Shown: positions 7,363-62,064 of the stretch, in pieces
How the letters are laid out: each line of letters opens with the position of its first letter
Position numbering within the stretch: the stretch's first letter is position 1
The notes under the pieces: model-generated
The model's database searches: none
The model's input: only the letters and a program-made list of their open reading frames with translations
Told to the model about the DNA's origin: nothing
Program-made: the position numbers and the translations under genes
Assembly: GCA_041389025.1 (NCBI GenBank)
Contig: JAWKSP010000001.1
Span: forward strand, 128,002 to 192,001
Source of the DNA: Minisyncoccota bacterium
GTDB taxonomy: Bacteria; Patescibacteriota; Minisyncoccia; Phycocordibacterales; UBA918
Reading direction: 5' to 3'
Length of the DNA stretch: 64,000 nucleotides

Positions 7363-8316
7363 TTAAAATACTGAATTTATTAAGTACTTAACTTTATGAG
7401 AAAATCCTGTCCCATCACCACAGACTTCCACCAAAGCGACCTTGTCTGGTTCTGATAAAACTAAAGAACCGGATTCTTCATCCATTAAATAGTACATGAT
7501 AGATTCGTTACCTTCAACATGTTCTATTCCGAGTGAATGACCAAACTCATGCGCCAACACTCTTGATAGCTCTGTTTCATTACTGAATTTATAGATGTTT
7601 ATCCTTTCTCGCTTAAAATCTCCTTGGGTAAATACTTCTCGATTACCAAATATTTCATTGTATTCTTTAACATTTTGATTATACTTTTCTATCACCAAGT
7701 TTACCTCCTCTCCTTTCTTGTTTATATCATTAACTAAACTATTTAAGTTATTTTCCGCTATTATTAAATCTGACATTATTTCAGATAAATACTCTTGTTC
7801 TTTTTGTAACTCTTTATACTTGTTTTCAGGCGCTCCACCCTGACTGTTGTAGTCTTCAACTTTTTTGTTATAGGTAGCCAATCTGTTCTCATAAGTCCCG
7901 CGTTGTTTTTTGTATTCACTTTCAACCTTTTTATACTCTTCGTTCATTTGATTTACTTCTTCCAGTAATTCTTTACCGTATTTCTCTTCCTCGTCTAAAC
8001 TAATTCTCCACTCTTCTTCAGTTCGAACCAACTGCTGTCTTTCATCATAAATAAAATTTACCGTAAACTTAGAAGCAGGATCATAGATAAATAAGTCCCT
8101 GCCAGCCGTCTTTTCCCATAAAGCTTCAACTCTCTCAAGGATAACTTTGATTTCATCCTCTTCAATTTCAAACCGGTCATCTACACTACCAACACTGTAT
8201 TTAATTGGAGCCGGACAAATATTAGCTGAACTGGTGTACCAAAAACTGGTTACAGATATTAAAATAAAAATAATTGTAATAATTAACAGCTGTGGCATAT
8301 GTACGATATAAATCAT
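7363..8316 (-). CDS. Membrane-anchored metzincin (matrixin/M10-like) zinc metalloprotease with coiled-coil region; start ambiguous (GTG 8346 / ATG 8316 / ATG 8298)
   Basis: HEFGHSLGIEH (HEXXHXXGXXH) followed by Met-turn SIMYY; N-terminal TM; long K/E-rich coiled coil. Confidence 0.6.
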   Translation of the reverse strand: MIYIVHMPQLLIITIIFILISVTSFWYTSSANICPAPIKYSVGSVDDRFEIEEDEIKVILERVEALWEKTAGRDLFIYDPASKFTVNFIYDERQQLVRTEEEWRISLDEEEKYGKELLEEVNQMNEEYKKVESEYKKQRGTYENRLATYNKKVEDYNSQGGAPENKYKELQKEQEYLSEIMSDLIIAENNLNSLVNDINKKGEEVNLVIEKYNQNVKEYNEIFGNREVFTQGDFKRERINIYKFSNETELSRVLAHEFGHSLGIEHVEGNESIMYYLMDEESGSLVLSEPDKVALVEVCGDGTGFSHKVKYLINSVF

Positions 8317-8964: not shown

Positions 8965-10653
8965 TTATTGATTACTAATTTTCTTCTCAGTCAGTTTCTT
9001 TCTCACCATCTGTTGCGCTGCGTTCATACTGTGCTGGTAGTAAAGAGACTTAATTCCCTGCTTCCAAGCTTCAATATAAAGTTTATTGATATCTTTTACC
9101 GGTGTATCCGGTGCCACCATCACATTTAAAGATTGGCCCTGATCAAGATACTTTTGTCGATCAGCTGCTTGTTTTATTACTATTGATTGATCAATTTCAG
9201 CAAAAGTTCGATAAATTTCTCGCTCCTCTATTGATAAGAAATCCAAGTGTTGAACTGAACCATCATGATCACGAATACTATCCCAGATTTCTTTATTATC
9301 TTTACCTTTTTCTTCAAGTAGCTTTTTAAGGTTAGGATTTTTAATTGTCACCTTCATTTTAGCCACATCTTTTACGTAACAGTTAGACCAAATTGGTTCA
9401 ATCCCCTGTGAAACTTGTCCTAAAATAAAAGCTGATGAAGTATTAGGTGCAATTGCTAATAGCGTGGTATTTCTTCTTCCATAACCAGTCAATATTTCCG
9501 GCTCTCCAAGCTCTTTAGCTAATTCTTTTGTGGCTTTTTTCGCTTGTTCGTTAATAAGCTTAAAAACCTCCACATTTATCTCTTGTGCCTCTTTACTCTC
9601 AAAAGAGAGTTTTTTGGCTTGGAGAAGTGAATGCCAACCAAGCGTACCGAGACCAAGTGCTCGATTAGCTTTAGCAAAATTATAGGCTCGTTCCATGAAA
9701 GTAAAAGCTAGCCGCTTCTCTTTATCTTCACTATCACGCATTACTTCTAGTTTCTTGATAAAATCTTCCATCACTGCATCCAAAAAAGCAATCATAGTCT
9801 CAACTAAGTCGGTATCTTTCCAGTCATCATAATGTCTTAGATTAATAGAAGACAAACAACATACAAACGACCAATCATCATGAGATGGCAACATAATCTC
9901 ACTACACATGTTGCTAGCATAAATCTTCAATTTTTTATCTTTATAGACATCAACAGTGTTTTTATTGGCAGTATCTTGAAACATTATATATGGATATCCC
10001 ATTTCACCACGACGCTGAATTACCCTTGCCCAAATTGCTCTTTTTTCTTCATCACCAGCAATCATCTCTTCCAACCATTCATCAGTTACTGTTACACCGT
10101 GGGTTAGTTTTTGAATTGGATTGCCTTCAGTTCCGATATCAAGAAATTCCAAAATATCAGGATGTTCAATTGGTAAGTAGGGTGAGAAATGCCCTCGACG
10201 TACTGATCCTTGACTAACCACATCGACCAAAGTCTCAAACAATTGCATAAAATGTACCGCTCCAGAGGAACTTCCATTATCTCCGGATATACGAGATCCT
10301 CGTTCTCTTAAATCACCAAAATAGCCCGAGCAACCACCACCAAATTTACTTTGCATTCCTACCTCAGCATTAGTGTATAGAATGCCTCCCATATTGTCAG
10401 AAACATAAGAACCAAAACAACTAATCGGCAATCCTTTATCAATACCAAAATTTGACCAAACTGGAGAAGCTAAGGAAATCCAGCCTTTAGACATATAATC
10501 AACGAACTTATCAGCAAACCCTTTACGGTTTAGAAATTTCTCCGCCGCTTTAGCGATAACTTCAATTCTATCTTCAGCCGTTTGTCCTTCTGCCAGATAA
10601 CCCCGAGCAAGAAAACCTCGACTATTTTCATTCAACCAGTACCATGAATCCAT
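8965..10653 (-). CDS. nrdA: Class I ribonucleotide reductase large (alpha) subunit, short form without N-terminal ATP-cone
   Basis: 562 aa; active-site motif ASNMCSEI (NxCxE), ...GLGTLGWH..., C-terminal region; begins directly MDSWYW with no cone. Confidence 0.85.
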   Translation of the reverse strand: MDSWYWLNENSRGFLARGYLAEGQTAEDRIEVIAKAAEKFLNRKGFADKFVDYMSKGWISLASPVWSNFGIDKGLPISCFGSYVSDNMGGILYTNAEVGMQSKFGGGCSGYFGDLRERGSRISGDNGSSSGAVHFMQLFETLVDVVSQGSVRRGHFSPYLPIEHPDILEFLDIGTEGNPIQKLTHGVTVTDEWLEEMIAGDEEKRAIWARVIQRRGEMGYPYIMFQDTANKNTVDVYKDKKLKIYASNMCSEIMLPSHDDWSFVCCLSSINLRHYDDWKDTDLVETMIAFLDAVMEDFIKKLEVMRDSEDKEKRLAFTFMERAYNFAKANRALGLGTLGWHSLLQAKKLSFESKEAQEINVEVFKLINEQAKKATKELAKELGEPEILTGYGRRNTTLLAIAPNTSSAFILGQVSQGIEPIWSNCYVKDVAKMKVTIKNPNLKKLLEEKGKDNKEIWDSIRDHDGSVQHLDFLSIEEREIYRTFAEIDQSIVIKQAADRQKYLDQGQSLNVMVAPDTPVKDINKLYIEAWKQGIKSLYYQHSMNAAQQMVRKKLTEKKISNQ

Positions 10654-10674: not shown

Positions 10675-11988
10675 TCAGAATAAATCATCACTAGTTACAC
10701 TAGCACTACGCTTATTATAATTGATTGAGCGTTTATGGAAAAAGTCTACGTGTTTGGTAGCAATCACCTCATTATCAAACCAATCAGTTTCTTCAAGCAA
10801 AGCTTCGCTCACTTCAAAAATGCGAGGTAGCCCGATAGATGCCAAAGAATTATTCAGACGATTCTTTACAAATTCTTTTACATTAGTAGACGGCATAAAA
10901 TCTAGCTCACCTGCTTCATAAATCCAGTCAATAATCTCACTTTCCGCTTCATACGCTTCATAACAAGCATTTATGATCATTTCCTTACAATCTTCATCAA
11001 ACCACTCCGGATGTTCTTGTTTAATGATATTAATAACATCAATCCCAAACATACCATGAATATTTTCTTCTTTAGAAGTAGCTTCTACAGCGTTACTAAT
11101 CCCTTTTAGTAAGTTTTTATGCTTATTAAAAGACATTATTATTAAAAACTGTGAAAATAAAGAGACGTGCTCAATAAACAAAGAGAACAACAGGACCGAG
11201 TGCATATACTGACGATTCTCATCCGTTTTAGACAAAGTGATAGTCTTTTCCAAATAATTAATTCGTTTTTTAATAACCGGCACATCAGTAATCTTTTCAA
11301 ATTCTGAATTAAGACCGAGTATCTCTAAAAGGTGTGAATAAGCGTCCATATGTCTCGCTTCACTTTCAGCAAAAGTCACGCCAACTGCGCTAATTTCCGG
11401 CTTAGGCATTTTTTTGTAGATATCACCCCAAAATGTCTTTACTGCCACTTCTATCTGAGCAATAGCTAACATAGCGTTTTTAATAGCATTTCTCTCTGAC
11501 TCATTTACATTTACATGGAAATCATTGATATCACTGGTGTAATTGAACTCGGTATGAATCCAATATGAATGCCTGATTGAATTTACATATTCGTATAATT
11601 CAGGGTATTCATATGGTTTTAGGTTGATTCTTTTATGAAAAATATCTCTTTCTCGTAACTTTTTACGAGCATTACGATAAATGATATAGGCTTTGGCTGT
11701 CTCAAAATAATCTAACTCCATTAAAGACTGTTCTACTAAGTCTTGAATTTCCTCCACTGCCGGATAACCATCTATACATTTCTTAGACTTAGGATCATCA
11801 GCTGAAGCTGTAGCTGCTTGCACACACATTGCTACCGTTTTTTGGTGAGCTAAATCAGCTACTTTTTTAGCGTCCTCAGCCTTACCTTCACCACTTCCTT
11901 CCAAGGCTTTTAAAATAGCATTCTCAATTTTTGCAATATTAAAAGACTGAACTGAACCGTCTCTTTTTCGAATTTGCTTAATCTCCAT
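10675..11988 (-). CDS. nrdB: Class I RNR small (beta, R2) subunit with an N-terminal ATP-cone domain fused
   Basis: 437 aa; residues 1-~90 (MEIKQIRKRDGSVQSFNIAKIENAILKAL...) look like an ATP-cone; remainder has ferritin-like diiron motifs (ESERNAIKNAMLAIAQIEVAV..., FAESEARHMDAYSHL, ...EENIHGMFG). Confidence 0.8.
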   Translation of the reverse strand: MEIKQIRKRDGSVQSFNIAKIENAILKALEGSGEGKAEDAKKVADLAHQKTVAMCVQAATASADDPKSKKCIDGYPAVEEIQDLVEQSLMELDYFETAKAYIIYRNARKKLRERDIFHKRINLKPYEYPELYEYVNSIRHSYWIHTEFNYTSDINDFHVNVNESERNAIKNAMLAIAQIEVAVKTFWGDIYKKMPKPEISAVGVTFAESEARHMDAYSHLLEILGLNSEFEKITDVPVIKKRINYLEKTITLSKTDENRQYMHSVLLFSLFIEHVSLFSQFLIIMSFNKHKNLLKGISNAVEATSKEENIHGMFGIDVINIIKQEHPEWFDEDCKEMIINACYEAYEAESEIIDWIYEAGELDFMPSTNVKEFVKNRLNNSLASIGLPRIFEVSEALLEETDWFDNEVIATKHVDFFHKRSINYNKRSASVTSDDLF

Positions 11989-12838: not shown

Positions 12839-13993
12839 CTAATGTTTAGCCTCTTCATCAACCGGATGCGAACATATATGTACCCCATCTTCTTTTACTA
12901 TTTTGTCCTTAAAATACCAAGCTGCCATAGCAGTAGTAAGTGGTACCGCTAAAATAAGACCGATACTTCCCACCACAATTCTTAGTACTTCAGCTGCCAC
13001 AACCTCCTGATTAATAACCAAAAATATCGGTGACGCACCATAAGCAAAGAGTAATATCATCGGTAATGCCGCCCCAACATAAGCCAAAGCCAGAGTATTT
13101 ACCAAAGAACCAACATGATCCCGGCCGACCTTAATAGCTCTATTATAAAGTTCTTTGAATCCAAAAACAGCGTTGGCACTCTTTAATTCTTGTACTACCG
13201 AAGCTTGTGTAATAGAAACATCATCCAAAAGGCCTAAAAGACCGATAATAATACTACCGAGCAGTAGACCTGATAAATCCAAAGTACCACCAGTCGCGAA
13301 ATTTAAATAAACCGAAGCATCATCACCAAAACCAGTTAACTTCATCCACTTGACCCAAATCCAAGCAATTGCACAAGTAACAAAGACCGCAGAGAAAGTG
13401 CCCAAGAAAGTTATAAACACTCTTGGTTTAAAACCATGTGTAAAGAACAAGGTAACACTTAAAATCAGACCAGATATAGCTAAACTAGCCAAAGCTGGCG
13501 AATACCCTTTAAGTAAAGCTGGTACTAAAAGGAAAATAATAGCCAAGATACTAATAGCTAGACTGGTAATAGCTCTTAAACCTTGCCGACCAGATAACCA
13601 AATTATTAAAGCAAAAAATAGTATAACAATTGCCAACATCGGACCCCTCCTCTCTACATCCTTAAAGGTAAAATATTCAATTCCATCTACAGCAACCAAA
13701 CGATTAACAAAAATATCGTCACCAACCGACAAAACCATTAAATCATTTTCCAGATCCACCATTTCTCCAGTCCTCTCTCCGTCTTTTAGTTTTATTTTTA
13801 ACTCTTGAACCGTAGTTGAAGCACCAGTACCCATAATGTCTCGTTCGTATTGATTAGTAACCTCAATAACTTCAGCTTTAATTGTCTCTTGAAATTCTTG
13901 ATGCACTTCTTGAGCTAACAGTAGGGATGGTAGAGATAAAATAAGAAAAAATAATGTGAAAATAACTTTTTTTATGATAATTATTGATTGCAT
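12839..13993 (-). CDS. YibE/F-family polytopic membrane protein
   Basis: 384 aa, signal/TM N-terminus then ~8 TM helices; overall similarity to YibE/F family (family-level call from composition/motifs). Confidence 0.55.
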   Translation of the reverse strand: MQSIIIIKKVIFTLFFLILSLPSLLLAQEVHQEFQETIKAEVIEVTNQYERDIMGTGASTTVQELKIKLKDGERTGEMVDLENDLMVLSVGDDIFVNRLVAVDGIEYFTFKDVERRGPMLAIVILFFALIIWLSGRQGLRAITSLAISILAIIFLLVPALLKGYSPALASLAISGLILSVTLFFTHGFKPRVFITFLGTFSAVFVTCAIAWIWVKWMKLTGFGDDASVYLNFATGGTLDLSGLLLGSIIIGLLGLLDDVSITQASVVQELKSANAVFGFKELYNRAIKVGRDHVGSLVNTLALAYVGAALPMILLFAYGASPIFLVINQEVVAAEVLRIVVGSIGLILAVPLTTAMAAWYFKDKIVKEDGVHICSHPVDEEAKH

Positions 13994-20000: not shown

Positions 20001-20882
20001 TTAAAATACGTTTAATCCCTTTAAATTATTTCGCAATCGTTGTCTTTCTTCAACAAAATCCGGTTCAGTATAAAAATATCTTATTTTTTGCTCTTCTATG
20101 CTATTACCGCTAGGTATCTCTCCTCGAACAAAAAATACAAAAGTTTCAGCCAGATCCTCATCCACACTGACTGTAGCGTAGTCGCTAACAAACCTATCTT
20201 CGTTATTATTGTAGTACTTGCTCGTGTATGAAAAACGATCTTTAATATCAACTTTTTCAACTGCCAATTGATTAGCAATATCGGCCTCGGTCCAAAATTT
20301 TTCCTTGTAATTCTTTTTAAAGGAAGGATATTTGGTTAGTAAAATATGTAAATATTCGTGTATATATAAATTCACAAAAGACTCGGTGTTTCTTCTATCA
20401 TTGGGTTGATAATTTTCCCGATTAACCCCAACGATCCAGCTAGTCATATTATTTATTGACTCCACATAGGCGCCAGTATCAATCTTCCCATCATAAAAAA
20501 TACGCCACTCACTCACCAAACCATCCACTTCATTCTCCCCTACCACCCCAACAAACAAATCAAAAAGTTTTTCATCATCACTTCGAACAAGTTTAGAGCC
20601 ATCAGAATTCACCAACTTTAAATCATCCACAAAATAAATCGCTTCGTACGGAAAAGTAAAAAATTTTGATTTATAAGGATCTCTAGTCGTATTGGTACTC
20701 GAAATAACCTCCAACCGTTGTTGCAACTCCAAAACTTCCTCCAATAAATTTTGTATTTTAAAGAGCAACTCAATCCTTTCTTCAGATGAAAGTTGGTTGT
20801 CGGCCTTTACTACATTTGGTATCACACTAAAAACCAAAATAAGACTAAAAATAATCAGTACGGCTGTTTGTTTGATTATCAT
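20001..20882 (-). CDS. Secreted/membrane-anchored hypothetical protein with HEYLH (HEXXH-like) motif; upstream ORF extension to 21065 probably not translated
   Basis: ATG at 20882 gives MIIKQTAVLIIFSLILVFSV signal/TM; HEYLH at ~residue 220. Confidence 0.4.
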   Translation of the reverse strand: MIIKQTAVLIIFSLILVFSVIPNVVKADNQLSSEERIELLFKIQNLLEEVLELQQRLEVISSTNTTRDPYKSKFFTFPYEAIYFVDDLKLVNSDGSKLVRSDDEKLFDLFVGVVGENEVDGLVSEWRIFYDGKIDTGAYVESINNMTSWIVGVNRENYQPNDRRNTESFVNLYIHEYLHILLTKYPSFKKNYKEKFWTEADIANQLAVEKVDIKDRFSYTSKYYNNNEDRFVSDYATVSVDEDLAETFVFFVRGEIPSGNSIEEQKIRYFYTEPDFVEERQRLRNNLKGLNVF

Positions 20883-21005
20883 ACAGGTATTATAACCTTG
20901 TTTTAAAATAGACGCTTTACGCAAAAGTTGTTTAGAATTTACTAAAACATACCTGAATCTACCCCCCCGCGACAAATTCAACAACCTAAACTGATTCCAG
21001 TCGTC

Positions 21006-21332
21006 TTGAAGTTGAAAGATATTTACCGCATATGGCAGGAATATCTGATATCTTTTCCTAAGCAAAACCGCTACACACTCGGTAACAAAATTGACGAAGT
21101 GTTTTTACTCGCTATCGAGTACTGCTTCTTAGCTAGTTACGCCAGCAAAGACACAAAGCTGATTCACCTTGAACGCTGTATATCACGAGTTGATTTGTTG
21201 AAATTGTTACTCCAACTAGCCTGGGAAATACACGCACTTGATACTAAAAAATACGCAGTGCTTGGAGAACAGTTACAAGAAGTTGGTCGGATGCTCGGTG
21301 GTTGGAAGAAAGGTATTGAAAGTAAACGATGA
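21006..21332 (+). CDS. Four-helix-bundle protein of the 23S-rRNA-IVS/Avd family; candidate DGR accessory variability determinant
   Basis: 108 aa; IWQEY...SFPKQNRYTLGNKIDE...LERCISRVDLLKLLLQLA...LQEVGRMLGGW matches the PF05635/TIGR02436 four-helix-bundle pattern; located 140 bp from TR. Confidence 0.6.
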   Translation: MKLKDIYRIWQEYLISFPKQNRYTLGNKIDEVFLLAIEYCFLASYASKDTKLIHLERCISRVDLLKLLLQLAWEIHALDTKKYAVLGEQLQEVGRMLGGWKKGIESKR

Positions 21333-21474
21333 AATGAAATGAAATTTATTCGTCCAGCAATTTCTTCTAGAAATGGAAGAAATTGCTGGACGTAAATTCG
21401 CAATATTCGCTTGCGCTCGTTTGCTCATTTAAAAAACTCCCCACCAAAGTGAGGAGAAAACTTTTGAGTTGCTT

Positions 21475-21573
21475 GAGAACACGGTTACCGTCATTCCACT
21501 GGTTAGCGTTAGCCGGATTGACGTTGACGTTCCAGTCGTCACCATTCCGATTGACGTTGACGTACAACACCTG
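21475..21573 (-). repeat. DGR template repeat (TR), 99 bp, adenine-rich on the minus (sense) strand
   Basis: 83/99 identity to VR; all 16 mismatches are TR-A (minus strand) versus non-A in VR. The overlapping 95-aa ORF (N-rich: NVNRNGDDWNVNVNPANANQWNDGNR) is an artefact of AAC codons. Confidence 0.8.
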
Positions 21574-21820
21574 TTCGTATGTGACACCACCCATCCGTAC
21601 CACCAGCATTTGATAGAAAACTAACAAACGCTTGTATTTTATGCAGGACATCAAAGTCCTCCAGATAGTATCACCAACTGCTTAATGTTTTTTTCAGATT
21701 TATACAAACTACACTCACCACAACCTTGATCATAGTGACTCTGAGTATTGCATGAAACCAAAACCCGCTGTCAAAGCCTTGACCGTGACATAATACGAAT
21801 TTCATTATTAGTATACAAAA

Positions 21821-21851
21821 GTCTCTTGAACACGCGAAGTATCCAAGAGAC
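21821..21851 (-). promoter_or_regulatory. Hairpin GTCTCTTG-(15 nt)-CAAGAGAC 48 bp downstream of VR 3' end
   Basis: 8-bp perfect stem; position analogous to the DGR stem-loop downstream of IMH. Confidence 0.4.
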
Positions 21852-21880
21852 GAAGGGTCAAAGGACCGAAGGACTCATGT

Positions 21881-22531
21881 CTAAGTGGCAGTTACCGAGA
21901 GAACACGGTAACCGTCACGCCACTGGCAAGCGAGAGCCGGACCGACGTAGACGCCCCAGTCGCCACCAATCCGAAAGACGTTGACGTACAACACCTGCTT
22001 CGAATTCTCCGGGTTACAGATGTAGCCAATATTGGCCTTGCCGTCGGTGTGCAGGTCGCCCGAACCATCCTCGGCATTATCGATCAACTGACCAATTATC
22101 AAATCCATCAGTGGAACCGAGTTGACGACTACGGCTTCACCCAGCTCACTGATAATCCCCGGCCTATCATCCGTATCAAGATCAGCCAGGGGTTCATTAA
22201 GATCACACCACTCAAGCGTTCGCTCTTTAGCCTCCGGCATTTCATAATCTTCTCCACCGAAAATCTTGTCCGCCATGCCGTAAAAGTAGACATTGCGATG
22301 TTTCAGTCGTTTCGGCTTTTTGACCGCTGACAGAGTGATGACGGTCGGGGCGGTGAGGCAAGATTTGATCGTCACCTCGGCACGACCTTGAAGAACAGGC
22401 AGGATTTTATACCACATGTCTTCATGGGCAAGTTTTGCCCATTCTGCTTGACCAGCACCAGCTTTACGACCAGTCACAACGACCTCGTGTATGAGGCCAA
22501 AATCTTTTCCAAATTCAGACGCACTGCTCAT
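21881..22531 (-). CDS. DGR variable (target) protein, FGE-sulfatase/C-type-lectin-fold-like, VR encodes the C-terminal ~33 aa
   Basis: 216 aa; ...ERTLEWCDLNEP... resembles FGE/CLec (WEWCxD); C-terminus NVFRIGGDWGVYVGPALACQWRDGYRVLS aligns with TR-encoded NVNRNGDDWNVNVNPANANQWNDGNRVL. Confidence 0.7.
   Translation of the reverse strand: MSSASEFGKDFGLIHEVVVTGRKAGAGQAEWAKLAHEDMWYKILPVLQGRAEVTIKSCLTAPTVITLSAVKKPKRLKHRNVYFYGMADKIFGGEDYEMPEAKERTLEWCDLNEPLADLDTDDRPGIISELGEAVVVNSVPLMDLIIGQLIDNAEDGSGDLHTDGKANIGYICNPENSKQVLYVNVFRIGGDWGVYVGPALACQWRDGYRVLSVTAT
21899..21997 (-). repeat. DGR variable repeat (VR) at 3' end of target gene
   Basis: See TR entry; VR ends 15 nt before the stop codon. Confidence 0.8.
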
Positions 22532-22589
22532 AGCAACACACCTCCTAATTATATTCGCCAGTGGGCTCCTAAGTTTTTAGGTTTTTAGG

Positions 22590-22641
22590 TTTACCATAGC
22601 TTCAAATCAACAAGAGTTTGCGGACTTAAAGCTATGGTAAA
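22590..22641. promoter_or_regulatory. 13-bp perfect inverted repeat TTTACCATAGCTT...AAGCTATGGTAAA (26-nt spacer) plus tandem GTTTTTAG x2, between relE-like stop and DGR target start
   Basis: Read from sequence; terminator or operator. Confidence 0.35.
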
Positions 22642-22713
22642 TATGAAAAGAACAACGCGTCAACTATAACACTTTTACTGTTATTAGTCAATACTTGCAA
22701 CCTGAATTCTCAC

Positions 22714-22968
22714 TCAATACAGCTGGCTATGAGTACCAATATTCACAAGCACCACAGTGTCGCTTTCTTTTTTGTAGTGGACTCTTATGTCACCAGTTAC
22801 ATCAATACTTCTTAAAATTTTGTACTTGCCTAAAAGTGTATGATTATTCAGAGAAGAGTGGAACTCGTCCTCTGAAAATTGCTGTATTACGATCTTGAAC
22901 TTTGCCTGAGTGCTTTTTGATTGTTTGGAAAAAGCTTTCTGAAACTTCTTATGAAAAACGATTTTCAT
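22714..22968 (-). CDS. RelE/YafQ-family type II toxin (mRNA interferase)
   Basis: 84 aa; ...LLGKYKILRSIDVTGDIRVHYKKESDTVVLVNIGTHSQLY typical RelE/ParE C-terminus; 1-nt gap to antitoxin gene. Confidence 0.7.
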   Translation of the reverse strand: MKIVFHKKFQKAFSKQSKSTQAKFKIVIQQFSEDEFHSSLNNHTLLGKYKILRSIDVTGDIRVHYKKESDTVVLVNIGTHSQLY

Positions 22969-22969
22969 A

Positions 22970-23242
22970 CTACTCTTGAAGTGCTTTCATAAGATCGGTG
23001 ACACTGGTAAAGGTTGGGGAAAGATTTCTACCTGCCTTGATATCACGCAAGATCTTCTCGTATTCCTTTTTTGTTTTCTCATTAAGCTCTGGTTCAACAC
23101 TGAGAACCAATCTTCGCTCGCGTATAAAATTCTTAAGCATACTGTTAACAACAGCACTGAAAGACACTCCCAGTTCACCCGCGAGTTTTGTTGCTTCTTT
23201 CTTTACTTCTTTATCTAATTTGATACTTGTTGTAGTCTTCAT
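22970..23242 (-). CDS. RelB/DinJ-family antitoxin (ribbon-helix-helix)
   Basis: 90 aa; TSIKLDKEVKKEATKLAGELGVSFSAVVNSMLKNFIRE matches DinJ N-terminal RHH. Confidence 0.65.
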   Translation of the reverse strand: MKTTTSIKLDKEVKKEATKLAGELGVSFSAVVNSMLKNFIRERRLVLSVEPELNEKTKKEYEKILRDIKAGRNLSPTFTSVTDLMKALQE

Positions 23243-26689: not shown

Positions 26690-27790
26690 ACCACCCTCGC
26701 TACGAGATCTCCACTCTTCGTGTTGCCAGAATCTCCCATATCAGAAAAGGTCCGAAAGGGCTCTTTCTTTTAACCAGATACCACATGATAGTGAGCATCT
26801 TTCGAGCTAAAGCAACTCCGAGCCACCTTAGAACCCTTTTTATCTTTGATTCTCGAATAGAATGTATATAACCTACCGGCTGAAGGTCTGATCTGACAGG
26901 CTGCTTCCACCATAATAGATCGCAGAAACGGTGAGCCTTTTCTGGTAATGTGTCCAAATCGCAACTTCCCTCCAGAAGAATGAGATGAGGATACTAATCC
27001 AGCGTAACTCGCTAACTGTTCTGGAGTCTTGAATCTTTCAAAATCTCCAACTTCAGCAATAATGGTTAGAGCGGTTAGTTCAGCTACACCAGGTATACTC
27101 ATCAATACCTTGGCACGTTCATCTATTTTAGCTTTTGATTTGATAATAACATCAAGTTCTTTGACTTCACTATTCACAAAATCAATGGTTTTTATTAATG
27201 ATTCAACCTCTTTTTATATAACTTATGGAAAACCTGATTCTTGATCCAGAGTTGTCCTTGTTTTCCAAACAGGTCAGTAACAGGACTTTCTAAACCATGT
27301 TTCCAGAGAATGCTATGGACTCGATTCTTAGTTCTGGTTCGTAAACGAATATAGAACATTCGCCAACGTACCAACTCACGCAGGTCTCTAACAGCCGGTG
27401 GTGCTAGGTATGCAGTGGCGATAAAATCTATACGAAGTAGTTCAGCGATAATTTCCGAGTCAACCTTATCGTGTTTAAGTCGACTTGCTGCAATAAGTTT
27501 AGTCTTAGCCGGATCTATCAGTTTAACTGTTATTCCAGTACTCTCCAGTACTTCAGCAAACCAACCCCATTGTGATACCGGTTCAATTCCGGCACATACT
27601 TTACTTATATTGATTGGTATCTGTTTTAGAGTAATAAGAGTATCTTGTTTGGTGGTTGGTACCTTACCTTGAAAAATTCTATTCTTATTTGAATCAATAA
27701 GTGTCCAATATCCGAAGGATTTATGCAGATCAATTCCTAAATAATATTCATTCATAGTACTAGTGTTACATTAATAATAATCAACTATTA
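26690..27790 (-). mobile_element. Degraded IS110-family insertion sequence (transposase split into three frames) adjacent to tRNA-Val
   Basis: 27195..27755 = DEDD N-terminal domain (LGIDLHKSFGYWTLID...); 26770..27177 = Transposase_20 core (LMSIPGVAELTALTIIAEVGDFERFKTPEQLASYAGL...); 26700..26957 = C-terminal tail in a third frame. Confidence 0.7.
26700..27755 (-). pseudogene. IS110-family transposase pseudogene (at least two frameshifts)
   Basis: As above. Confidence 0.65.
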
Positions 27791-54237: not shown

Positions 54238-57200
54238 TTAATTAGCCGCGTCTTCGTATTCTTTCTTACGAGGATTCTGGTTACTAATCGGTTGCTGCTT
54301 GTTCAAGCCTCCATTTTCATATTTAGCCTCTGGATGTTGATCATAGATCTTTTGTTCTTGACCTCGTTGCGTTGCGTAATCATCTGTTCTTCTGTTAACC
54401 TCAAAATCATAATCTCTTGTTTCAGGATTTCGCGCATGTTCGTATTCACGTCTCTCAAGATTATTGGTTCTACCAGTTCTTACAACCTTTCCTGTTTCAC
54501 TGTCGATGAGTTTATATGTTCCACCCACAGCTTCAACAGCCTCATCACTATACTGAGCAACCCTCCTTAATGATCCAACTCCTACAACTCCAGGCACAAG
54601 TGCTCCACCAGCATCAAGAGCCAGGTTAGTTGCTTCACCCCTTACATCACCACCAGTCAGAATTGCTTCACCTAGTTTATAAGCACTGTAAGCCGTGAAT
54701 CCAACATCAACAACGATATCTAACCATTCTCCATTTTTATCTTGATATTTGAGTGGGTTGTTAGCTGTGTAACTATAAGTATTTTGGGCTTGTGGGTTTT
54801 TTAGATAGATATCTACTGTTGAATCCATTTTATCTCTCATCAGCCCAGGACTACCCAAAGCTAACGACACCGGATCCTGAGAAGTGAAGCGACCAGTATC
54901 CCCTGACTGGTAGCGTGCACCCATATAGGAAAGACTAGTCTCCTCATCATAATCATGCCCTGTATACCTCTTAGTTTGATTGATTGTATCGTACTTATTA
55001 TCTATCCTCGTACCACCATAAGGTTGGTAGTTTAGTAACTGATTTAAGTATCCGGTTTGATCGGTAACTTTGGTAGTAGAGTTTAAGTGATCTTGGTGGT
55101 TGTAGTATGTCTTGGGGGCTGGTGTATCTGCTTCTATGGTAGCGACTAGAGTATGGTTGGTGTAGATGTGTTTGGTAATGTTTCCATTCTTTAGTTCATA
55201 GTTGGAGAATGGGTAGAGGGTGGTGTTGGTACCGGTGGTTTTGGAGACTCTTTGACCGGTGTGGTCATAGGTGTATGAAGTGGTTATTCCTGCTTTTGTG
55301 GACTCAGTTAGTTCGTTGCGGTAGTTCCAGGTATTAGTAGTACTACCGTCTGTTAGGAGGTTACCGTTTTGGTCATAGGTGTGGGTGGTACCTCCGATGG
55401 CGGTGGCAGCGTGTGGGTTGGCGTAGTTGGTACCAGTGTCTCCTTGGTAGGAGTATGTTCCTTGATCTGATTTAGTAAGGATGTTTCCTATACTGTTGTA
55501 TGAGTAGGTTTCACTGTATGGGGTGGTGCTGGCGCCCGTGGTTGAGGCGGAAGTCAGGCGATATAGATCATCGTAGGTGTAGGTAATAGTACCAGCAGAG
55601 TCTGTCTCACTATTGTCTATTATTTGAGTAATGTTACCGACAGTGTCGTAGGTGTAGGTGAGATTTTGGACATTCTCAACAAAGATTGGAAGAGTTGGAG
55701 TGGTGGTACTGGTGGTAGTACCGGCCGCTAATGAGAAAGTAGCCGTCTCAGTACTCCACTCTCCTTCTGTGTCACTGTCATCCCAGAATTTTATACGCCA
55801 GTGGTAGGTGGTGCTGGAAGCTAGTGGTAAACCACCATATGTGATGTCGGCAGTTCTGTTTCCTGCTGTTACTTGACTGACTAGCGCAGTCTTTGTACTA
55901 TCCCAAATATTGTTGGTGAAAGCAGTTGAAGTTGATACTTGGAGTTGGTAATGAGTTGCCGTATCTCCTGTATCTGGGTCATTGTATATAGCTGTGAATT
56001 CTGGTGTGTTGTCGGTGATATCTGTCGGATTGGTTTGTCCTTCTGTTTCAAGAAGTGTTGGTGCAGTTGGGGTGGCGTTGGTTGGTGGTGGAGGTATATT
56101 TCCTGTTTCATAAGTTGCATATATTGAATGTAAGGCGTGACCAGCATCAGTACACGATGGACTGTTTGGTGCTAAAAAACTATTAGTATGGTCAAATATT
56201 TCATGTACACCATAAGCAAAATCTAGCTTAATATCAGGATAACCCTTAGACACTATGGTAAGAGCATAGTTTGTATTTGGATTAATTGACACAGGTATTT
56301 CAAAAACACTTTCCGTCCAAGCAAAATTTGTTGGAATATTTGCAGACACACCAACTCCATCAGACACAATTCCACAGGTATTTGTATCTATTACAACTCC
56401 TTTGAATTTATCATTGCTGTAATACTTTCTTGTAAAAAAATTTATACCAGTGACAGTAGTAGCGTCTGACGGACTAGTGTATACATTGCCAATCATCCAA
56501 TTATGTCCAACATAATCCGTATAGGCACCAACAGAAGTATTGCCAAAAGTCGGATCCACAACCACTGGATAAGTTGCTGTTTCTAAGAAGTTTTGTGGGA
56601 CAGTAACAGAGAGCATTCCCTCTTTATAATCTAATTCTCCCCATACCTCTTCACCATTGGCGTCTTTAATTTTTGGTCTATATATATGATAGACTTTTCC
56701 GGTAGCATAATTTATCTCTCCTTTTACATGATTCTTCTTAGTCTTGTGGTATACCGCATAACTACCAACTATATTTTCTGCTCGCTCCAGGGTTACTCTA
56801 CCACCCTCATCAATACACTTCGTTTCCGTACAAATCTCTCCTTCTCCAAACAACCCTTCAAGTGAAACTGGTTGATAAAAGAAATCAAGATCCTCATATC
56901 CATCAATTTCAAACTCAAATACATTGGTGTCCGGTTTTTCGTCCAAAATCACTTCGATTTCAAACCCTCCATCTTCCATTTGCTCAGTGGCAGGCAACGG
57001 ATAAGCATGTATTCTTTCTTTCTTGTCTTTGTCTTTCCATTCAACTACATCAGTTCCTAAAATATTTTCCCCTTGCCCTTTTACTTTGTTGTATCTAACA
57101 CCAAGATCAATTTCTCCTTTCCATTTGTGAAGACGTACCTCGGGATGGGTTTTCTTTAGAATAACTTTATCTTTGTTCTTATTATTTTGTATTAAAAATA

Positions 57201-60200
57201 AGCTATCATCACCTTCAATGTACTTACTTTTCTTATCTGAGTTATTAATTTTATCTATTACATCTAAAATTATGGATGTTTTTGTCTCTGGTAAGAAAGT
57301 CCTATTTGTATTAGGTTCATGTACAGATACAGTATAATTCTCGTCAGTGGAGGTAGATATTATTTCGATACTTTCTGACACACCAATAGTTGTAATCAAC
57401 TCTTCAACGTACATATCTTCATCAGTAACCACTGACCCAGTTCCAGCCGAAGTGGTAGTAGTTGCAGTATCAGATAGTGATGTAGTAATGTCGGAAGAAG
57501 TAGCGATTGGCTCATCCACTGTTTCTACCACCATCTCTTCTTCGGTTGACGGAGCTATAGAGTCAGTAGTCAAAGCATCTAGCTCAGCCTCTATGGTAGC
57601 CAACTCTTCACCCCCATTACCGGTACCGTAAGTACTGGTAGCAGTAGTGAGGATATTTTTCAATCGGTACAGTTCGGTCGCGTCATAAGTACGAGTAGTT
57701 ATAGAGCCGTTGCCGTATTCGATATTTTCCATCTGACCATGCGGCCCATAATCAATATCACTGACGATATTTGCAAAAGTTCCCCCACTCTCTCTTTGTT
57801 CCACTTTGTCTACCTGACCACCTTTATTAAAGATGTACTTAACTTCTGAGTTATCTGGATAAGTAATGAGTGTTTGGTTGCCTTGGCGATCATACTGGTA
57901 GCTAGTGGTATAGGTATTACTATTTATTGTTTTAGCTTCTGAAGCCAAAAGATTATTTGGAGTATAAGTGTAGTTAGTGGTAGCCGAAGAATTAACGGCG
58001 GTACAAAGCTGTCCCACGCCACCCGTACAAGTGTCGTAGGTATAAGTAATTTCTGTACCAGCTTGTCCGGTGTAGTTCTCGGTCAACTGACGATTGAGAG
58101 CGTCGTAGGTGTAGTTGGTAGTCTGACTCTCTGGATCAGTCTTGCTGGTTAGGTTGCCGGCATTATCGTAAGCAAAAGTCCAAGTACCAAAAGTACTATC
58201 ACTCGGTGCATGCAAGTCCTCCAAGCTAGTACGCCGACCAAGCGAGTCATAACTTATATTTCGCACATTACCTTCCGCATCAGTTATCTTGGTCAAGTTA
58301 CCAAGATTATTCCAAGTGTAGCCTGTGGTATATGAATTGGTTCCTTCGTTTTCAGTCACGGCTACCAGTCGACCAAAAGCATCATATTGGAATTTCTTAT
58401 CGTTGCCAGCGGTATCGGTAACAATTTCTTTCCATTGGTCATAAACTGTTTCAGTTGTACCGACCACAGTCTCCACTGAAGACACCCTGCCAACCGGATC
58501 ATAGTTGAAAATACTTAAAAGATTATTGTTGGTAGTAGGTACACTTCTTGCTGAACCGGTATCAAAATACCGTAAAGACTCTTTGGCCAAAAGACCATTA
58601 TCACCATAAACGTAATCTTTCACTACATACTGATTACTTTCTTCCGCTTCTTGTCTTTCTTGTATCTTTCGACCAAAACCATCCAAGAATGTGTATGAAT
58701 TTTTAACCAAACTGCTGTTTAGATAATTTTTCTTTTGCACGCTGACACTGCCAACCGTATCGGTGTAGACATACTCAGTTTGTACTACCGGAGCGCCGGT
58801 CTGTGGGTCAGGTAATGTAACAGTAAGTGGTCGGCCAAATCCATCGTAAGTAGTGGCAAAAATATTTCCATTAGCGTCGGTAGTAGTCGCTACTTGCCCG
58901 GAAGAATAATCATACTCATACTGTGTAGTCTGGTTGAGAGAGTTGGTGACACTGGTCGGATATAAGTTGTATGCATCGTAAGTGTAGTTAGTGGTGTTAC
59001 CGTTTGGATCAGTCTCGGCTGTTACTAGCCCTAGACTGTTGTATGTCCATTGTTTGTTTATATAGTTGCTACCACCTAACCAATTTTCTTCTTTGGTCTT
59101 ATTACCTAGAGTAACCGTACCAAGTGGTTGGTTATCGTAGTAGAAGAGAGACTCTTGGACTTTGGTGCCGGAGTTGTCGGTCAAGGTTTGTTTGGATGGT
59201 AGTACCATACCGCTAGCATTAGTAGCATACTCAATAGTCGTTACTTGTTTGTCGGTACCAGTATCTGAGAAAGTGCCATCAGAATTACCATTCACCTCTC
59301 CCCACTCGGTTTTTGTGAGAAGTGAGCCGTTGGTGTTGTTGTATGTATAGCTGTTGGCCGAAGCTTTTTTGTCGCTATCACCATCGTAATCAAGCTTAAG
59401 GTCACTCTCTAATTTTAAAAATATATTTCCACCACTAAGTGAAGTGGTAGAAAAATTGTTATGAGAGAGTGCATAAATATTATCTGAAAAATCGTTTACT
59501 TCACTACGATACACTTGGCCGATCAAAAACTCGCCATCTACCCTCTCTTCAGATGTGGTTGAGACCCCGTTTCCTTGATGGTAATAATTTACTTCTTTGT
59601 TTAAACTGGTGATCTTAGAGACTTCACCAAAACCAGAAAACTTGCGTTCGTATATATTATCTGCATCGTAATAAAAATCAGCTTTTTTATAATCATAAAC
59701 CTCAATTTGTACATCACCAAAATTTGAACTCATCTCCTTACTGGTTACCACCACGGGGTTAAATCTTGGTTTTCCAATTTCTTGATAATTCACCCGTCCA
59801 TCTTCCAAATAACCACTATATGAAACTTCAATATTTCCAGATTTTGAAGAAGAAATAAGAGAAAGTTGATCGGGAACAATTTGATCATTTAATTTTACCG
59901 AACCACCACTTGTATGCACTTCATATAAATCATTGAATTCCAAATCCAAGATATCAACAATAGTATCTCCGTCTATATCTACAAAAGCTTTTCCATAGTT
60001 ATGACCACTATAACTATGAGTTAAGAAAAAAGGTAAAGAATAACTTTCTTTTTTCCAACCATTTCCGGTATTAATGTATGTTTCAGCAAACTGCTGACCA
60101 CTATAATACAGTGATTTAACTATATCGGGTAATCTATCACCATTAATATCAACTAAATTATAACCTGTATTAGGAGAACCAGTACTTTTTATGTAAAAAT

Positions 60201-62064
60201 CCACAGGTAAAATCCAATCGGAACTGGTAGCCCAACCATTTCCGGTATTAAGATACACGATTCTTTCGTCTATTTCTGGATTAAATTCTTTTCTATCATC
60301 CTTATAACCTCTAACAGCATCAATTAACCCATCACCGTTAACATCTATCAATCTAGTACCCATATCTGAAAAACTTTTCCATCCGTATCTACTAGATTTA
60401 TTCCCTAAAGGAACCGGAAAATATAATTCTGAATCTTCCCAACCCTGACCGTTATTTAATGCTACTGATGATCTTATATTTTCAGGAACAGAACCATTCT
60501 CAAGCGAAATAAACTCAGAGGTTATGATGTCTGGTAACCCATCACCGTTCACATCTGCGAATGTTCTTGCTGAGTTTGCAAACTTAGAATCAGGATAATA
60601 CCACCAAGTAAAAGACAATAATCCAGTCCAATTTGTATCTTTTACAAAACCACTGCCATTGTTTATATAGACACCGTATTGCTCCAAAGGATACCAAGAA
60701 GGGTATTCATAGTATGAAGAAGGTCCGTCGTAGGCTACTACTATGTCGTCTAACCCATCACCGTTCACATCTATCAATCTAGTGCCCATATCGATATATT
60801 GTGTAGGGTTACTTGTGTTGTCTTTTTCTCTAATCGAGAAAGGCACCTTGATATCATCCCAACTCCAATCAACATCATAATCCCATTGTCCGCCACCTTT
60901 ATTTATATGTACTCTTCTAACCAAATGATTCTCCCATGGATATTGATCACGATCAAAGAAGTGGTAGTATCTAACAACATCAATTAATCCGTCTCCATTT
61001 AAATCGCCAAACCTTACTCCGGTATCTTTAGAATTTAAAGGTTCCGGAAAGTTTTCATATTCCGTACTATTCGACCAATCAGGCAATTTAACACCACCAT
61101 ACTCAAAAATAGTTTCCGGTAAAATAACCTCACCTGATTCTCCGTAACCTTTCTCAGTTATACCTAACAACAAAATTCTACTCTCATTTATACCTTCACC
61201 AAATCGTAAATCATAGCTTCTTACTTTTTCATCATTAACGTAAACGCCTATACCTGAAACGTTGTATTTTCTTGTGACTTTAAAGTTTTTATCATATGAA
61301 GTAAATGGAGTTGTGCTTGTCGCCAATGAAAACTTGACCTCGAAAATATCACTATAAGAAATACTTTCTGGATATATCGAGCCGTTACTTTTTACATATG
61401 TATAATTTGTAACATTTCCGTCTTTATCTTCCACTTTTTCTAGCATCCATTTAGCAACCTCGTTTTCGTTACCAGTATTACTTTGACGAGAATTGTCAGT
61501 TAGACCAAAGTAATATTTATTTCCACTTTTATCTCTAACCTCCCAAACATTATCCAGAAAAATATAGGATAAAAAATCTCCTCTCTCTATTCTAGACACA
61601 AATGTGGTTGAGTCGTTAGTAGGAAACAATTCCCCTGATAAGGACGAATAAAAAGTTGATGACGCAATATACAATTTATCAACACCTCTTTTGTTTATAG
61701 TTTCAATAAAAGGTATAGAGGACTTCCAACCATAACCAAACACATCAACGTCACTTGCTTGCTGATTATTGTATGTAAGTTTTAACATTGGTGTATATTG
61801 ACCTCTCCCTTCAGGAAAAGAAAAGTCATATTTATATTCAAAAGCACCGGTAGATAAATTTATCGTTCCACTATTTAGAAAACTTATATCTCTTGACGGT
61901 ATATTGGTAACAAAACCATCTTCATTTGTGTACACGTCAGCTGATGCAAAATTTTCTAAAGGTATAGCAAAAAATAAAAACACAAGCATAAGGCTTGTGT
62001 TTTTATAAAGAAAATTAAAAAACTTACTTTCGGTTTTTGGTTTGGTTAAACAGAAAAAATTCAT
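54238..62064 (-). CDS. Rhs/YD-repeat polymorphic toxin (2608 aa): signal peptide, FG-GAP/VCBS-like Ca-binding repeats, YD repeats, P/T-rich linker + FN3-like domain, Rhs core ending ...GRFTSQDPVSLALG, C-terminal GIY-YIG-like nuclease tip
   Basis: Repeated xDxNGDGLxDxV motifs; dozens of YD repeats (YTYDxxGNL...); core ...YMGARYQSGDTGRFTSQDPV; tip GTYKLIDSETGKVVRTGRTNNLERREYEH fits GIY-x10-YIG...R...E/H pattern. Confidence 0.85.
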   Translation of the reverse strand: MNFFCLTKPKTESKFFNFLYKNTSLMLVFLFFAIPLENFASADVYTNEDGFVTNIPSRDISFLNSGTINLSTGAFEYKYDFSFPEGRGQYTPMLKLTYNNQQASDVDVFGYGWKSSIPFIETINKRGVDKLYIASSTFYSSLSGELFPTNDSTTFVSRIERGDFLSYIFLDNVWEVRDKSGNKYYFGLTDNSRQSNTGNENEVAKWMLEKVEDKDGNVTNYTYVKSNGSIYPESISYSDIFEVKFSLATSTTPFTSYDKNFKVTRKYNVSGIGVYVNDEKVRSYDLRFGEGINESRILLLGITEKGYGESGEVILPETIFEYGGVKLPDWSNSTEYENFPEPLNSKDTGVRFGDLNGDGLIDVVRYYHFFDRDQYPWENHLVRRVHINKGGGQWDYDVDWSWDDIKVPFSIREKDNTSNPTQYIDMGTRLIDVNGDGLDDIVVAYDGPSSYYEYPSWYPLEQYGVYINNGSGFVKDTNWTGLLSFTWWYYPDSKFANSARTFADVNGDGLPDIITSEFISLENGSVPENIRSSVALNNGQGWEDSELYFPVPLGNKSSRYGWKSFSDMGTRLIDVNGDGLIDAVRGYKDDRKEFNPEIDERIVYLNTGNGWATSSDWILPVDFYIKSTGSPNTGYNLVDINGDRLPDIVKSLYYSGQQFAETYINTGNGWKKESYSLPFFLTHSYSGHNYGKAFVDIDGDTIVDILDLEFNDLYEVHTSGGSVKLNDQIVPDQLSLISSSKSGNIEVSYSGYLEDGRVNYQEIGKPRFNPVVVTSKEMSSNFGDVQIEVYDYKKADFYYDADNIYERKFSGFGEVSKITSLNKEVNYYHQGNGVSTTSEERVDGEFLIGQVYRSEVNDFSDNIYALSHNNFSTTSLSGGNIFLKLESDLKLDYDGDSDKKASANSYTYNNTNGSLLTKTEWGEVNGNSDGTFSDTGTDKQVTTIEYATNASGMVLPSKQTLTDNSGTKVQESLFYYDNQPLGTVTLGNKTKEENWLGGSNYINKQWTYNSLGLVTAETDPNGNTTNYTYDAYNLYPTSVTNSLNQTTQYEYDYSSGQVATTTDANGNIFATTYDGFGRPLTVTLPDPQTGAPVVQTEYVYTDTVGSVSVQKKNYLNSSLVKNSYTFLDGFGRKIQERQEAEESNQYVVKDYVYGDNGLLAKESLRYFDTGSARSVPTTNNNLLSIFNYDPVGRVSSVETVVGTTETVYDQWKEIVTDTAGNDKKFQYDAFGRLVAVTENEGTNSYTTGYTWNNLGNLTKITDAEGNVRNISYDSLGRRTSLEDLHAPSDSTFGTWTFAYDNAGNLTSKTDPESQTTNYTYDALNRQLTENYTGQAGTEITYTYDTCTGGVGQLCTAVNSSATTNYTYTPNNLLASEAKTINSNTYTTSYQYDRQGNQTLITYPDNSEVKYIFNKGGQVDKVEQRESGGTFANIVSDIDYGPHGQMENIEYGNGSITTRTYDATELYRLKNILTTATSTYGTGNGGEELATIEAELDALTTDSIAPSTEEEMVVETVDEPIATSSDITTSLSDTATTTTSAGTGSVVTDEDMYVEELITTIGVSESIEIISTSTDENYTVSVHEPNTNRTFLPETKTSIILDVIDKINNSDKKSKYIEGDDSLFLIQNNKNKDKVILKKTHPEVRLHKWKGEIDLGVRYNKVKGQGENILGTDVVEWKDKDKKERIHAYPLPATEQMEDGGFEIEVILDEKPDTNVFEFEIDGYEDLDFFYQPVSLEGLFGEGEICTETKCIDEGGRVTLERAENIVGSYAVYHKTKKNHVKGEINYATGKVYHIYRPKIKDANGEEVWGELDYKEGMLSVTVPQNFLETATYPVVVDPTFGNTSVGAYTDYVGHNWMIGNVYTSPSDATTVTGINFFTRKYYSNDKFKGVVIDTNTCGIVSDGVGVSANIPTNFAWTESVFEIPVSINPNTNYALTIVSKGYPDIKLDFAYGVHEIFDHTNSFLAPNSPSCTDAGHALHSIYATYETGNIPPPPTNATPTAPTLLETEGQTNPTDITDNTPEFTAIYNDPDTGDTATHYQLQVSTSTAFTNNIWDSTKTALVSQVTAGNRTADITYGGLPLASSTTYHWRIKFWDDSDTEGEWSTETATFSLAAGTTTSTTTPTLPIFVENVQNLTYTYDTVGNITQIIDNSETDSAGTITYTYDDLYRLTSASTTGASTTPYSETYSYNSIGNILTKSDQGTYSYQGDTGTNYANPHAATAIGGTTHTYDQNGNLLTDGSTTNTWNYRNELTESTKAGITTSYTYDHTGQRVSKTTGTNTTLYPFSNYELKNGNITKHIYTNHTLVATIEADTPAPKTYYNHQDHLNSTTKVTDQTGYLNQLLNYQPYGGTRIDNKYDTINQTKRYTGHDYDEETSLSYMGARYQSGDTGRFTSQDPVSLALGSPGLMRDKMDSTVDIYLKNPQAQNTYSYTANNPLKYQDKNGEWLDIVVDVGFTAYSAYKLGEAILTGGDVRGEATNLALDAGGALVPGVVGVGSLRRVAQYSDEAVEAVGGTYKLIDSETGKVVRTGRTNNLERREYEHARNPETRDYDFEVNRRTDDYATQRGQEQKIYDQHPEAKYENGGLNKQQPISNQNPRKKEYEDAAN

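Follow-up and report, generated by a model that had tools for sequence, protein, structure and literature searches.

A diversity-generating retroelement (DGR) locus that has kept every part of its cassette except the reverse transcriptase (RT) gene was found in the 64,000-nt stretch of a Minisyncoccota bacterium genome analysed here (contig JAWKSP010000001.1, positions 128,002 to 192,001; hereafter the window, numbered from its first letter). The locus comprises a template repeat (TR), a variable repeat (VR) at the 3' end of a target gene, the accessory gene Avd and a set of conserved non-coding elements. The reading favoured, which we consider probable, is that the RT was recently deleted from a cassette of the type found in the candidate phyla radiation (CPR), leaving the VR now frozen. 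A preliminary description, made from the sequence alone, had called the repeats a DGR; this stands as regards the adenine-mutagenesis signature of TR-to-VR transfer, but not as regards a complete element, the RT being absent both from the locus and from the rest of the window. The TR/VR pair itself was certainly produced by DGR mutagenic retrohoming, since the adenine-only statistics, the adjoining Avd and the locus-wide DNA homology to dozens of complete DGR cassettes all lead to that conclusion.

The pair is a gap-free direct repeat of 99 nt with 83/99 identity, as had been described, and a start-to-start spacing of 424 nt, TR lying at 21475-21573 and VR at 21899-21997, both on the minus strand. 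Of the 99 positions 16 are mismatched, and on the minus strand the TR base is A in all 16, while VR has T seven times, G seven times and C twice. Tabulated by TR base, the differences at non-adenine positions amount to 0/73. As TR holds 26 adenines in 99 bases, the probability that 16 random mismatches would all fall on an adenine is 4.7e-12 (hypergeometric), so that the strict adenine specificity claimed for the lower copy was confirmed. The same copy had been said to be rich in AAC codons, and six AAC plus four AAT codons (10 AAY) were counted. All 16 changes fall on codon positions 1 or 2 of the target open reading frame (ORF), 21881-22531 on the minus strand, altering 10 codons from TR to VR, nine for Asn and one for Asp, into F, I, G, G, Y, G, L, C, R and Y. 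Adenine randomisation of TR would give a theoretical repertoire of about 10^15 protein variants, with no stop codon reachable. The VR, which occupies codons 179-211, does lie at the 3' end of the gene, but is not literally its last 99 nt, as five codons (SVTAT) and the stop come after it. With adenine-tolerant scoring the pair extends to about 104 nt (21472-21575 and 21896-21999), including 19 adenine mismatches. A pattern made from TR with each A replaced by N matches, within the window, only the TR and VR sites and gives 0 matches in shuffles, and no further copy was found in genome or metagenome contig collections, among which the source genome is not included.

The context of the pair was established with 44 loci fetched with the window Avd from species-representative genomes, 41 of which are not cut by a contig end. 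These relatives share one layout, in which the RT (minus strand) is followed by a divergent Avd (plus strand) and, some 40 nt beyond the stop of Avd, by TR (minus strand); about 330 nt then separate TR from VR, which sits at the 3' end of a minus-strand gene encoding roughly 170-260 aa. In 40 of the 41 evaluable loci the RT lies 50-80 nt upstream of, and divergent from, Avd, and its position is therefore regarded as fixed. The complete cassettes homologous to the window locus carry the same adenine signature in their own TR/VR pairs. Such pairs were found in 39/44 loci, with 7-24 adenine mismatches each, and the 36 RT-bearing pairs show non-adenine mismatches as follows: 0 in 25, 1 in 6, 2 in 4 and 6 in 1. 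In a whole-cassette alignment of 39 loci, all parts of the window locus but the RT (target/VR, TR, opposite-strand Avd and the non-coding parts) align to 38 relatives. The order of these parts along the minus strand is common to the window and its relatives: an array of CTTNG motifs, a terminator-like hairpin, a -10 box, a leader, TR, and a hairpin with a U-run. The TR-VR offset is 424 nt in the window and between 434 and 513 nt in 39 relatives. Patescibacteria/CPR carry DGRs of this clade in great abundance, with at least 8000 RT homologues at E<=1e-10 in a profile search, and the window element is thus, with thousands of Patescibacteria members in its clade, an ordinary one as far as DGRs are concerned.

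Against this background the absence of the RT is sharply delimited. DNA homology between the window and the complete cassettes spans 20944-21326 and 21432-21678, and on the RT side similarity stops at about 20944, the position of the RT start codon in complete cassettes. What is left, 20944-21005, is a remnant of the divergent Avd/RT intergenic region in which the conserved poly-C tract is kept. The place of the RT is taken by a DGR-unrelated gene for a signal-peptide protein (20001-20882, minus strand, identified by translation), whose product has a weak HExxH metallopeptidase-like match (Peptidase_Mx1, 19 bits, below cutoff) and a similarly weak match in the NCBIfam scan. The longer ORF to which this gene belongs, 20001-21065 (minus strand), was considered as a candidate for hiding an RT N-terminus and rejected, as no RT similarity was found; the Met at 20882, which precedes the signal peptide, is probably its true start. 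No RT of the DGR clade was found in the cassette or elsewhere in the 64-kb window. In fact, no ORF of the window contains the RT motif YxDD, tblastn of three RTs (from cassettes with Avds 82-88% identical) against the window returned noise only, and an unfiltered profile hidden Markov model (HMM) of 60 clade RTs gave a best match of E=0.37 against the six-frame translation of the window. The 20 longest other ORFs of the window all have unrelated Pfam assignments and none is an RT, the long ones being housekeeping genes (thymidylate synthase, ribonucleotide reductase, PyrF, PilM, glutamate dehydrogenase, Ddl and others).

The Avd gene (21006-21332, plus strand, TTG start, 108 aa) is convergent with TR and is recognised by Pfam PF22296 (bAvd) with 54.4 bits against a cutoff of 40; the score with NCBIfam DivGenRetAVD (NF033474), 66.7 bits, is below the equivalog cutoff of 80. 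Its homologues are abundant in Patescibacteria, with identities of up to 93% among the 120 best matches, and no annotated-protein record was found for the window Avd itself. Between the body of the gene and the hairpin that follows TR lies an insert of 105 nt (21327-21431), containing a perfect hairpin of 14-16 bp, by which the last six Avd residues (KNSPPK) are swapped for R. This insert was considered as a sign of decay and rejected, because it is also present in two loci with intact RTs (L009 and L012), where the hairpin covaries, its stem bases changing in a compensatory manner. Accordingly, the insert is a variant of the cassette, an optional structured module, and not a product of decay.

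The non-coding parts point to a separate transcript for TR. An extended -10 box, TGTATACT (21810-21817, minus strand), was located in an alignment of 34 cassettes; in its TAnnnT hexamer, which is preceded by TG, the T, A and T are invariant throughout, and from this sequence conservation it may be regarded as the putative promoter of the TR RNA. Downstream of the box, 21578-21809 (minus strand) form a structured non-coding leader of about 240 nt, for which RNAalifold, applied to the same 34 cassettes, gives eight helices; among these are two hairpins whose loops are of the GGUYAMGGCU type, and a long-range helix closing just ahead of TR. The consensus has 52 pairs, 45 of them with compensatory changes. 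Paired cells reach 92.6%, versus 42-49% in controls with partners slid 1 to 3 columns, and the covariation score is 0.785, versus at most 0.21 in the slid controls, while 0/500 shuffles reach the observed values. A leader HMM built without the window matches the window leader over its full length, in a single copy (E=2e-27). Finally, 18 nt past TR there is a terminator-like 8-bp hairpin, CTCCTCAC/GTGGGGAG, followed by a U-run (21431-21456, minus strand, from a hairpin scan), which overlaps the ancestral Avd stop codon on the opposite strand. A hairpin with UUUU occurs at the same place in 38/39 cassettes, as seen in the extracted tails, with stems of 8-13 bp whose sequences vary.

The whole eight-helix leader has no corresponding Rfam family, and only single hairpin modules of it resemble RT-7 and RT-9. 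Modules CAGAGU...GGUCAAGGC...GAGUGU and GGUYAMGGCU align to the 5' hairpins of these two families, but with scores that fall far short of the gathering thresholds (27.3 bits against 116.8 for RT-7, RF03028, and 25.3 bits against 46.1 for RT-9, RF03080). The Rfam scan of the window and 17 related loci yielded no family at or above its threshold. The RT-n motifs have been speculated to function in retrons or DGRs, and RT-10 has been placed in the BPP-1 DGR (Weinberg et al. 2017, PMC5737381).

These parts can be combined in a mechanism. A separate RNA of about 375 nt would be transcribed from its own -10 box and would consist of the 240-nt structured leader, the 99-nt TR and the terminator hairpin, the boundaries of this transcript and the role of its leader being those presumed from the conserved elements. 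In complete cassettes, RT and Avd would copy TR into complementary DNA with misincorporation opposite adenines, the complementary DNA would take the place of VR in the 3'-terminal part of the 216-aa target gene, and a probably lectin-like C-terminal surface could be rewritten in as many as 16 codons. Mutagenic rewriting of this kind took place at the window locus in the past, as the 16 adenine-specific differences show. The RT gene would later have been removed from its fixed place beside Avd, where an unrelated secreted-protein gene now follows, and the VR would be frozen, barring an RT that acts on it in trans from another part of the genome. Both the deletion as an event and the present inactivity of the element are put forward as the probable course of things. 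The loss would be recent, since no non-adenine mismatch has accumulated and both the TR RNA and Avd are intact, and it is estimated to have occurred at less than about 3% neutral divergence.

Decay of related cassettes has been seen independently in three loci. In L101 (752-2539 of a Joint Genome Institute (JGI) metagenome contig) Avd is intact and the pair shows 18 adenine and 0 other mismatches, but the RT is reduced to residues 7-51, a stub of 45 residues followed by hrcA-grpE-dnaK. In L011 the RT is missing, the target is truncated and there are two non-adenine mismatches, and in L006 the RT is split and there are six. A further observation concerns a candidate division Kazan metagenome-assembled genome (MAG; METB01000001.1), where the RT match at L020:2618-3181 covers residues 1-188 of about 335 and may represent another truncated copy; its TR/VR pair is clean, with 24 adenine and 0 other mismatches.

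Nevertheless, several results weigh against a recent loss followed by inactivity, and have to be set beside it. Apart from the RT itself no decay is found, the TR/VR pair being free of non-adenine differences, and the promoter box and the terminator of the TR RNA are intact. The window leader retains 50 of the 52 consensus pairs, equalling the best RT-bearing cassettes. Relaxed selection is not seen in Avd, whose ratio of nonsynonymous to synonymous substitution rates against its closest sampled relative, L006, is 0.043, equal to that between RT-linked Avds. The five RT-less modules have 0, 0, 0, 1 and 2 non-adenine mismatches, like the RT-bearing cassettes (0 in 25/36), a pattern which fits continued activity as well as recent loss. 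One of the relatives, moreover, holds a second TR-RNA/VR module beside a complete cassette, as described below. In addition, the search for an RT covered the 64-kb window of a genome of roughly 0.6 Mb.

All of these points bear on the strongest of the alternatives, which we hold to be possible but unlikely: that the locus is a functional RT-less satellite module, its TR RNA being read in trans by an RT encoded elsewhere, for instance in a second cassette of the same family, and its VR still being diversified. All the non-RT parts are intact and under constraint, as this would require, and RT-less modules with clean adenine-only pairs recur. In a survey of 63 target-family loci from metagenomes, complete cassettes lie downstream in seven (L058, L059, L066, L070, L071, L103 and L108), many have no DGR parts at all, and three have a TR without a complete RT, namely L101 and two others on JGI metagenome contigs that lack both Avd and RT (L085:6001-7075, with 19 adenine and 0 other mismatches, and L089:2656-3726, with 18 adenine and 1 other). 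Clean pairs, however, are equally expected soon after the loss of an RT.

A possible example of such a satellite is found in a Candidatus Kaiserbacteria MAG (JAYVHQ010000018.1), where a second TR-RNA/VR module (L012:7737-8827) adjoins a complete RT/Avd/TR1/VR1 cassette. It has no RT of its own and consists of leader2 (8236-7996), TR2 (7992-7878) and VR2 (8429-8315), the latter ending a 172-aa ORF, with Avd present as a fragment only (7747-7845) and with 7 adenine and 0 other mismatches between TR2 and VR2. Here, one RT may serve two templates. Genomes with two cassettes of the same family do exist (L042 and L044 from one MAG, and a tandem pair in L046), but they make up only about 5% of the sampled genomes. 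Around the window locus, 21 kb on one side and 42 kb on the other are free of an RT, and no Avd or RT from the source contig is among the 120 best homologues listed for each, which is weak evidence. Action in trans is plausible, because known DGRs show that the RT need not adjoin the VR it rewrites: a plasmid-borne avd-TR-brt experiment with the Bordetella phage DGR, cited in PMC5758913, demonstrated that avd, TR and brt can act in trans, and remote DGR targets are documented in Trichodesmium (PMC8867640). In those systems, however, the TR stays with the RT and only the VRs are remote, whereas in the window and in the second module of L012 a distant RT would need to use a separate TR RNA. Extending this to CPR in general, namely that TR-RNA/target modules lacking an RT, whether or not they have Avd, act as functional DGR satellites and that one RT reads several TR RNAs, would bring together the window, L085, L089, L101 and the second module of L012; we regard this extension as tentative and, on balance, doubtful.

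Much less probable is that the absence of the RT is an artefact of assembly or binning, the organism having in reality a complete cassette that was lost from view, for instance, when strains were collapsed onto one carrying a deletion or when sequences were wrongly joined in the Avd/RT intergenic region. The source is indeed a MAG, the breakpoint lies inside a conserved intergenic segment with a poly-C tract, and a fragment of an IS110-type transposase 5 kb away points to local rearrangement. Nonetheless, the source contig is long (622,966 bp), the sequence runs unambiguously into an intact signal-peptide gene 61 nt past the breakpoint, and similar RT losses occur in independent assemblies (L011, L085, L089 and L101). 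The idea that the pair is an ordinary segmental duplication, in which the copied 3' end of the gene drifted apart by normal mutation and no retroelement took part, has nothing in its favour beyond the existence of the repeat and is refuted, as the preliminary description had held, by the 16/16 differences at adenines of one copy, the adjoining Avd and the homology of the flanks to dozens of DGR cassettes.

With recent loss of the RT remaining the preferred explanation, the locus can be compared with known systems. Its layout would correspond to architecture B3 of Wu et al. (2018, Nucleic Acids Research, PMC5758913), to which 90% of CPR DGRs belong according to that paper, in which more than half of the candidate DGRs were discarded as inactivated. 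With the cassettes of CPR/Patescibacteria it shares the order and orientation of target/VR, TR and convergent Avd and the place of the RT, as well as a homologous leader RNA, CTTNG array and terminator hairpin and an Avd of up to 93% identity. It differs from them in having no RT, and in a target N-terminal domain unlike that of the closest Avd relatives. The DGR of Bordetella phage BPP-1 (mtd, avd, TR and brt), the mechanistic prototype, has in common with it the adenine-specific transfer of sequence from TR to a VR at the 3' end of a gene for a ligand-binding protein, the Avd accessory protein and the AAY-rich TR codons unable to yield stops. In BPP-1, however, avd lies upstream of TR on the same strand, and a priming RNA element (Sp) lies between TR and brt, whereas in the window Avd is convergent, there is no RT, only about 45 nt with a terminator hairpin come after TR, and a structured leader of 240 nt precedes it.

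The target gene (21881-22531, minus strand) is an intact ORF of 216 aa, and its product is 100% identical to NCBI "hypothetical protein R3B60_00770" from a Candidatus Paceibacterota MAG. The family has a conserved N-terminal helical domain (MSSASEFGKD..TGRKAG..W.KLAH) and variable C-terminal parts, VR falling in the C-terminal domain. No match for the fold was found by Foldseek against PDB, nor was any found in Pfam or NCBIfam. Upstream of the gene, a consensus scan gave a promoter-like site, TTGACT-17-TATAGT with extended TG (22663-22691, minus strand), a pattern match with 10/12 positions. Between this site and the start codon, inverted-repeat detection revealed an imperfect palindrome of 32 nt with the core TTTACCATAGC...GCTATGGTAAA (22582-22649), possibly an operator or a hairpin of the 5'-untranslated region. 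It is conserved in L011 (7420-7472, 81% over 53 nt), and a similar palindrome lies 5' of the target orthologue of L001 (about 9899-9950), a DGR-less locus.

Downstream of the gene there are five tandem 8-nt units with the CTTNG motif (21835-21871, minus strand), the first of them 10 nt past the target stop codon. This is the sole such array in the window (3 overlapping pattern matches versus 0.21 expected), and 20 related loci, among them L085 and L089 without RT, have the motif at the same place after VR; the array may be a cis element for target recognition or termination. The hairpin scan also detected a terminator-like hairpin with a T-run after the target gene (21821-21851, minus strand), at whose place the relatives have variable GC-rich hairpins followed by a T-run.

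The closest target orthologues, those of L001 and L002, are about 50% identical and have a syntenic neighbourhood. No TR, Avd or RT was found within 10 kb of them, and consequently no ancestral state for the window locus can be taken from these two. In L001 the orthologue is bracketed by perfect direct repeats of 50 nt (9792-9841 and 10738-10787), the first copy being the 3' end of a YibE_F gene, and the syntenic junction of the window, between YibE_F (12839-13993) and ribonucleotide reductase (10675-11988), holds no target-type gene. Because of these flanking repeats and the empty junction, the data suggest that the target gene itself forms a unit that was inserted or is mobile.

Regarding the rest of the window, a YafQ-type toxin (84 aa) and a RelB-type antitoxin (90 aa) are encoded directly upstream of the target gene (22714-23242, minus strand). 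The transposase fragment mentioned above is a 186-aa ORF (27195-27755, minus strand), which matches only the N-terminal DEDD domain of IS110-family transposases and is probably a truncated copy of the insertion sequence. An ORF of 2608 aa (54238-62064, minus strand) lies in a region of higher G+C content (0.42 versus about 0.35).

The window locus offers a clean example of a cassette in which the RT gene alone is gone, all other parts being pristine. There are four more RT-less modules, one of which adjoins a complete cassette, and with them the locus raises the question of whether the RTs of CPR DGRs can serve separate template RNAs in trans. If they do, surveys of DGRs anchored on the RT would miss such modules and undercount the diversified genes, and, if the modules are satellites, one enzyme would diversify several unrelated genes through separate templates. 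Furthermore, in a very abundant clade TR would be carried by a discrete transcript, which has a terminator hairpin and a large leader with strong covariation support; VR, in turn, is followed by a periodic CTTNG array. The leader, the terminator and the array may thus help studies of how priming and target recognition proceed in a clade that has no experimental model.

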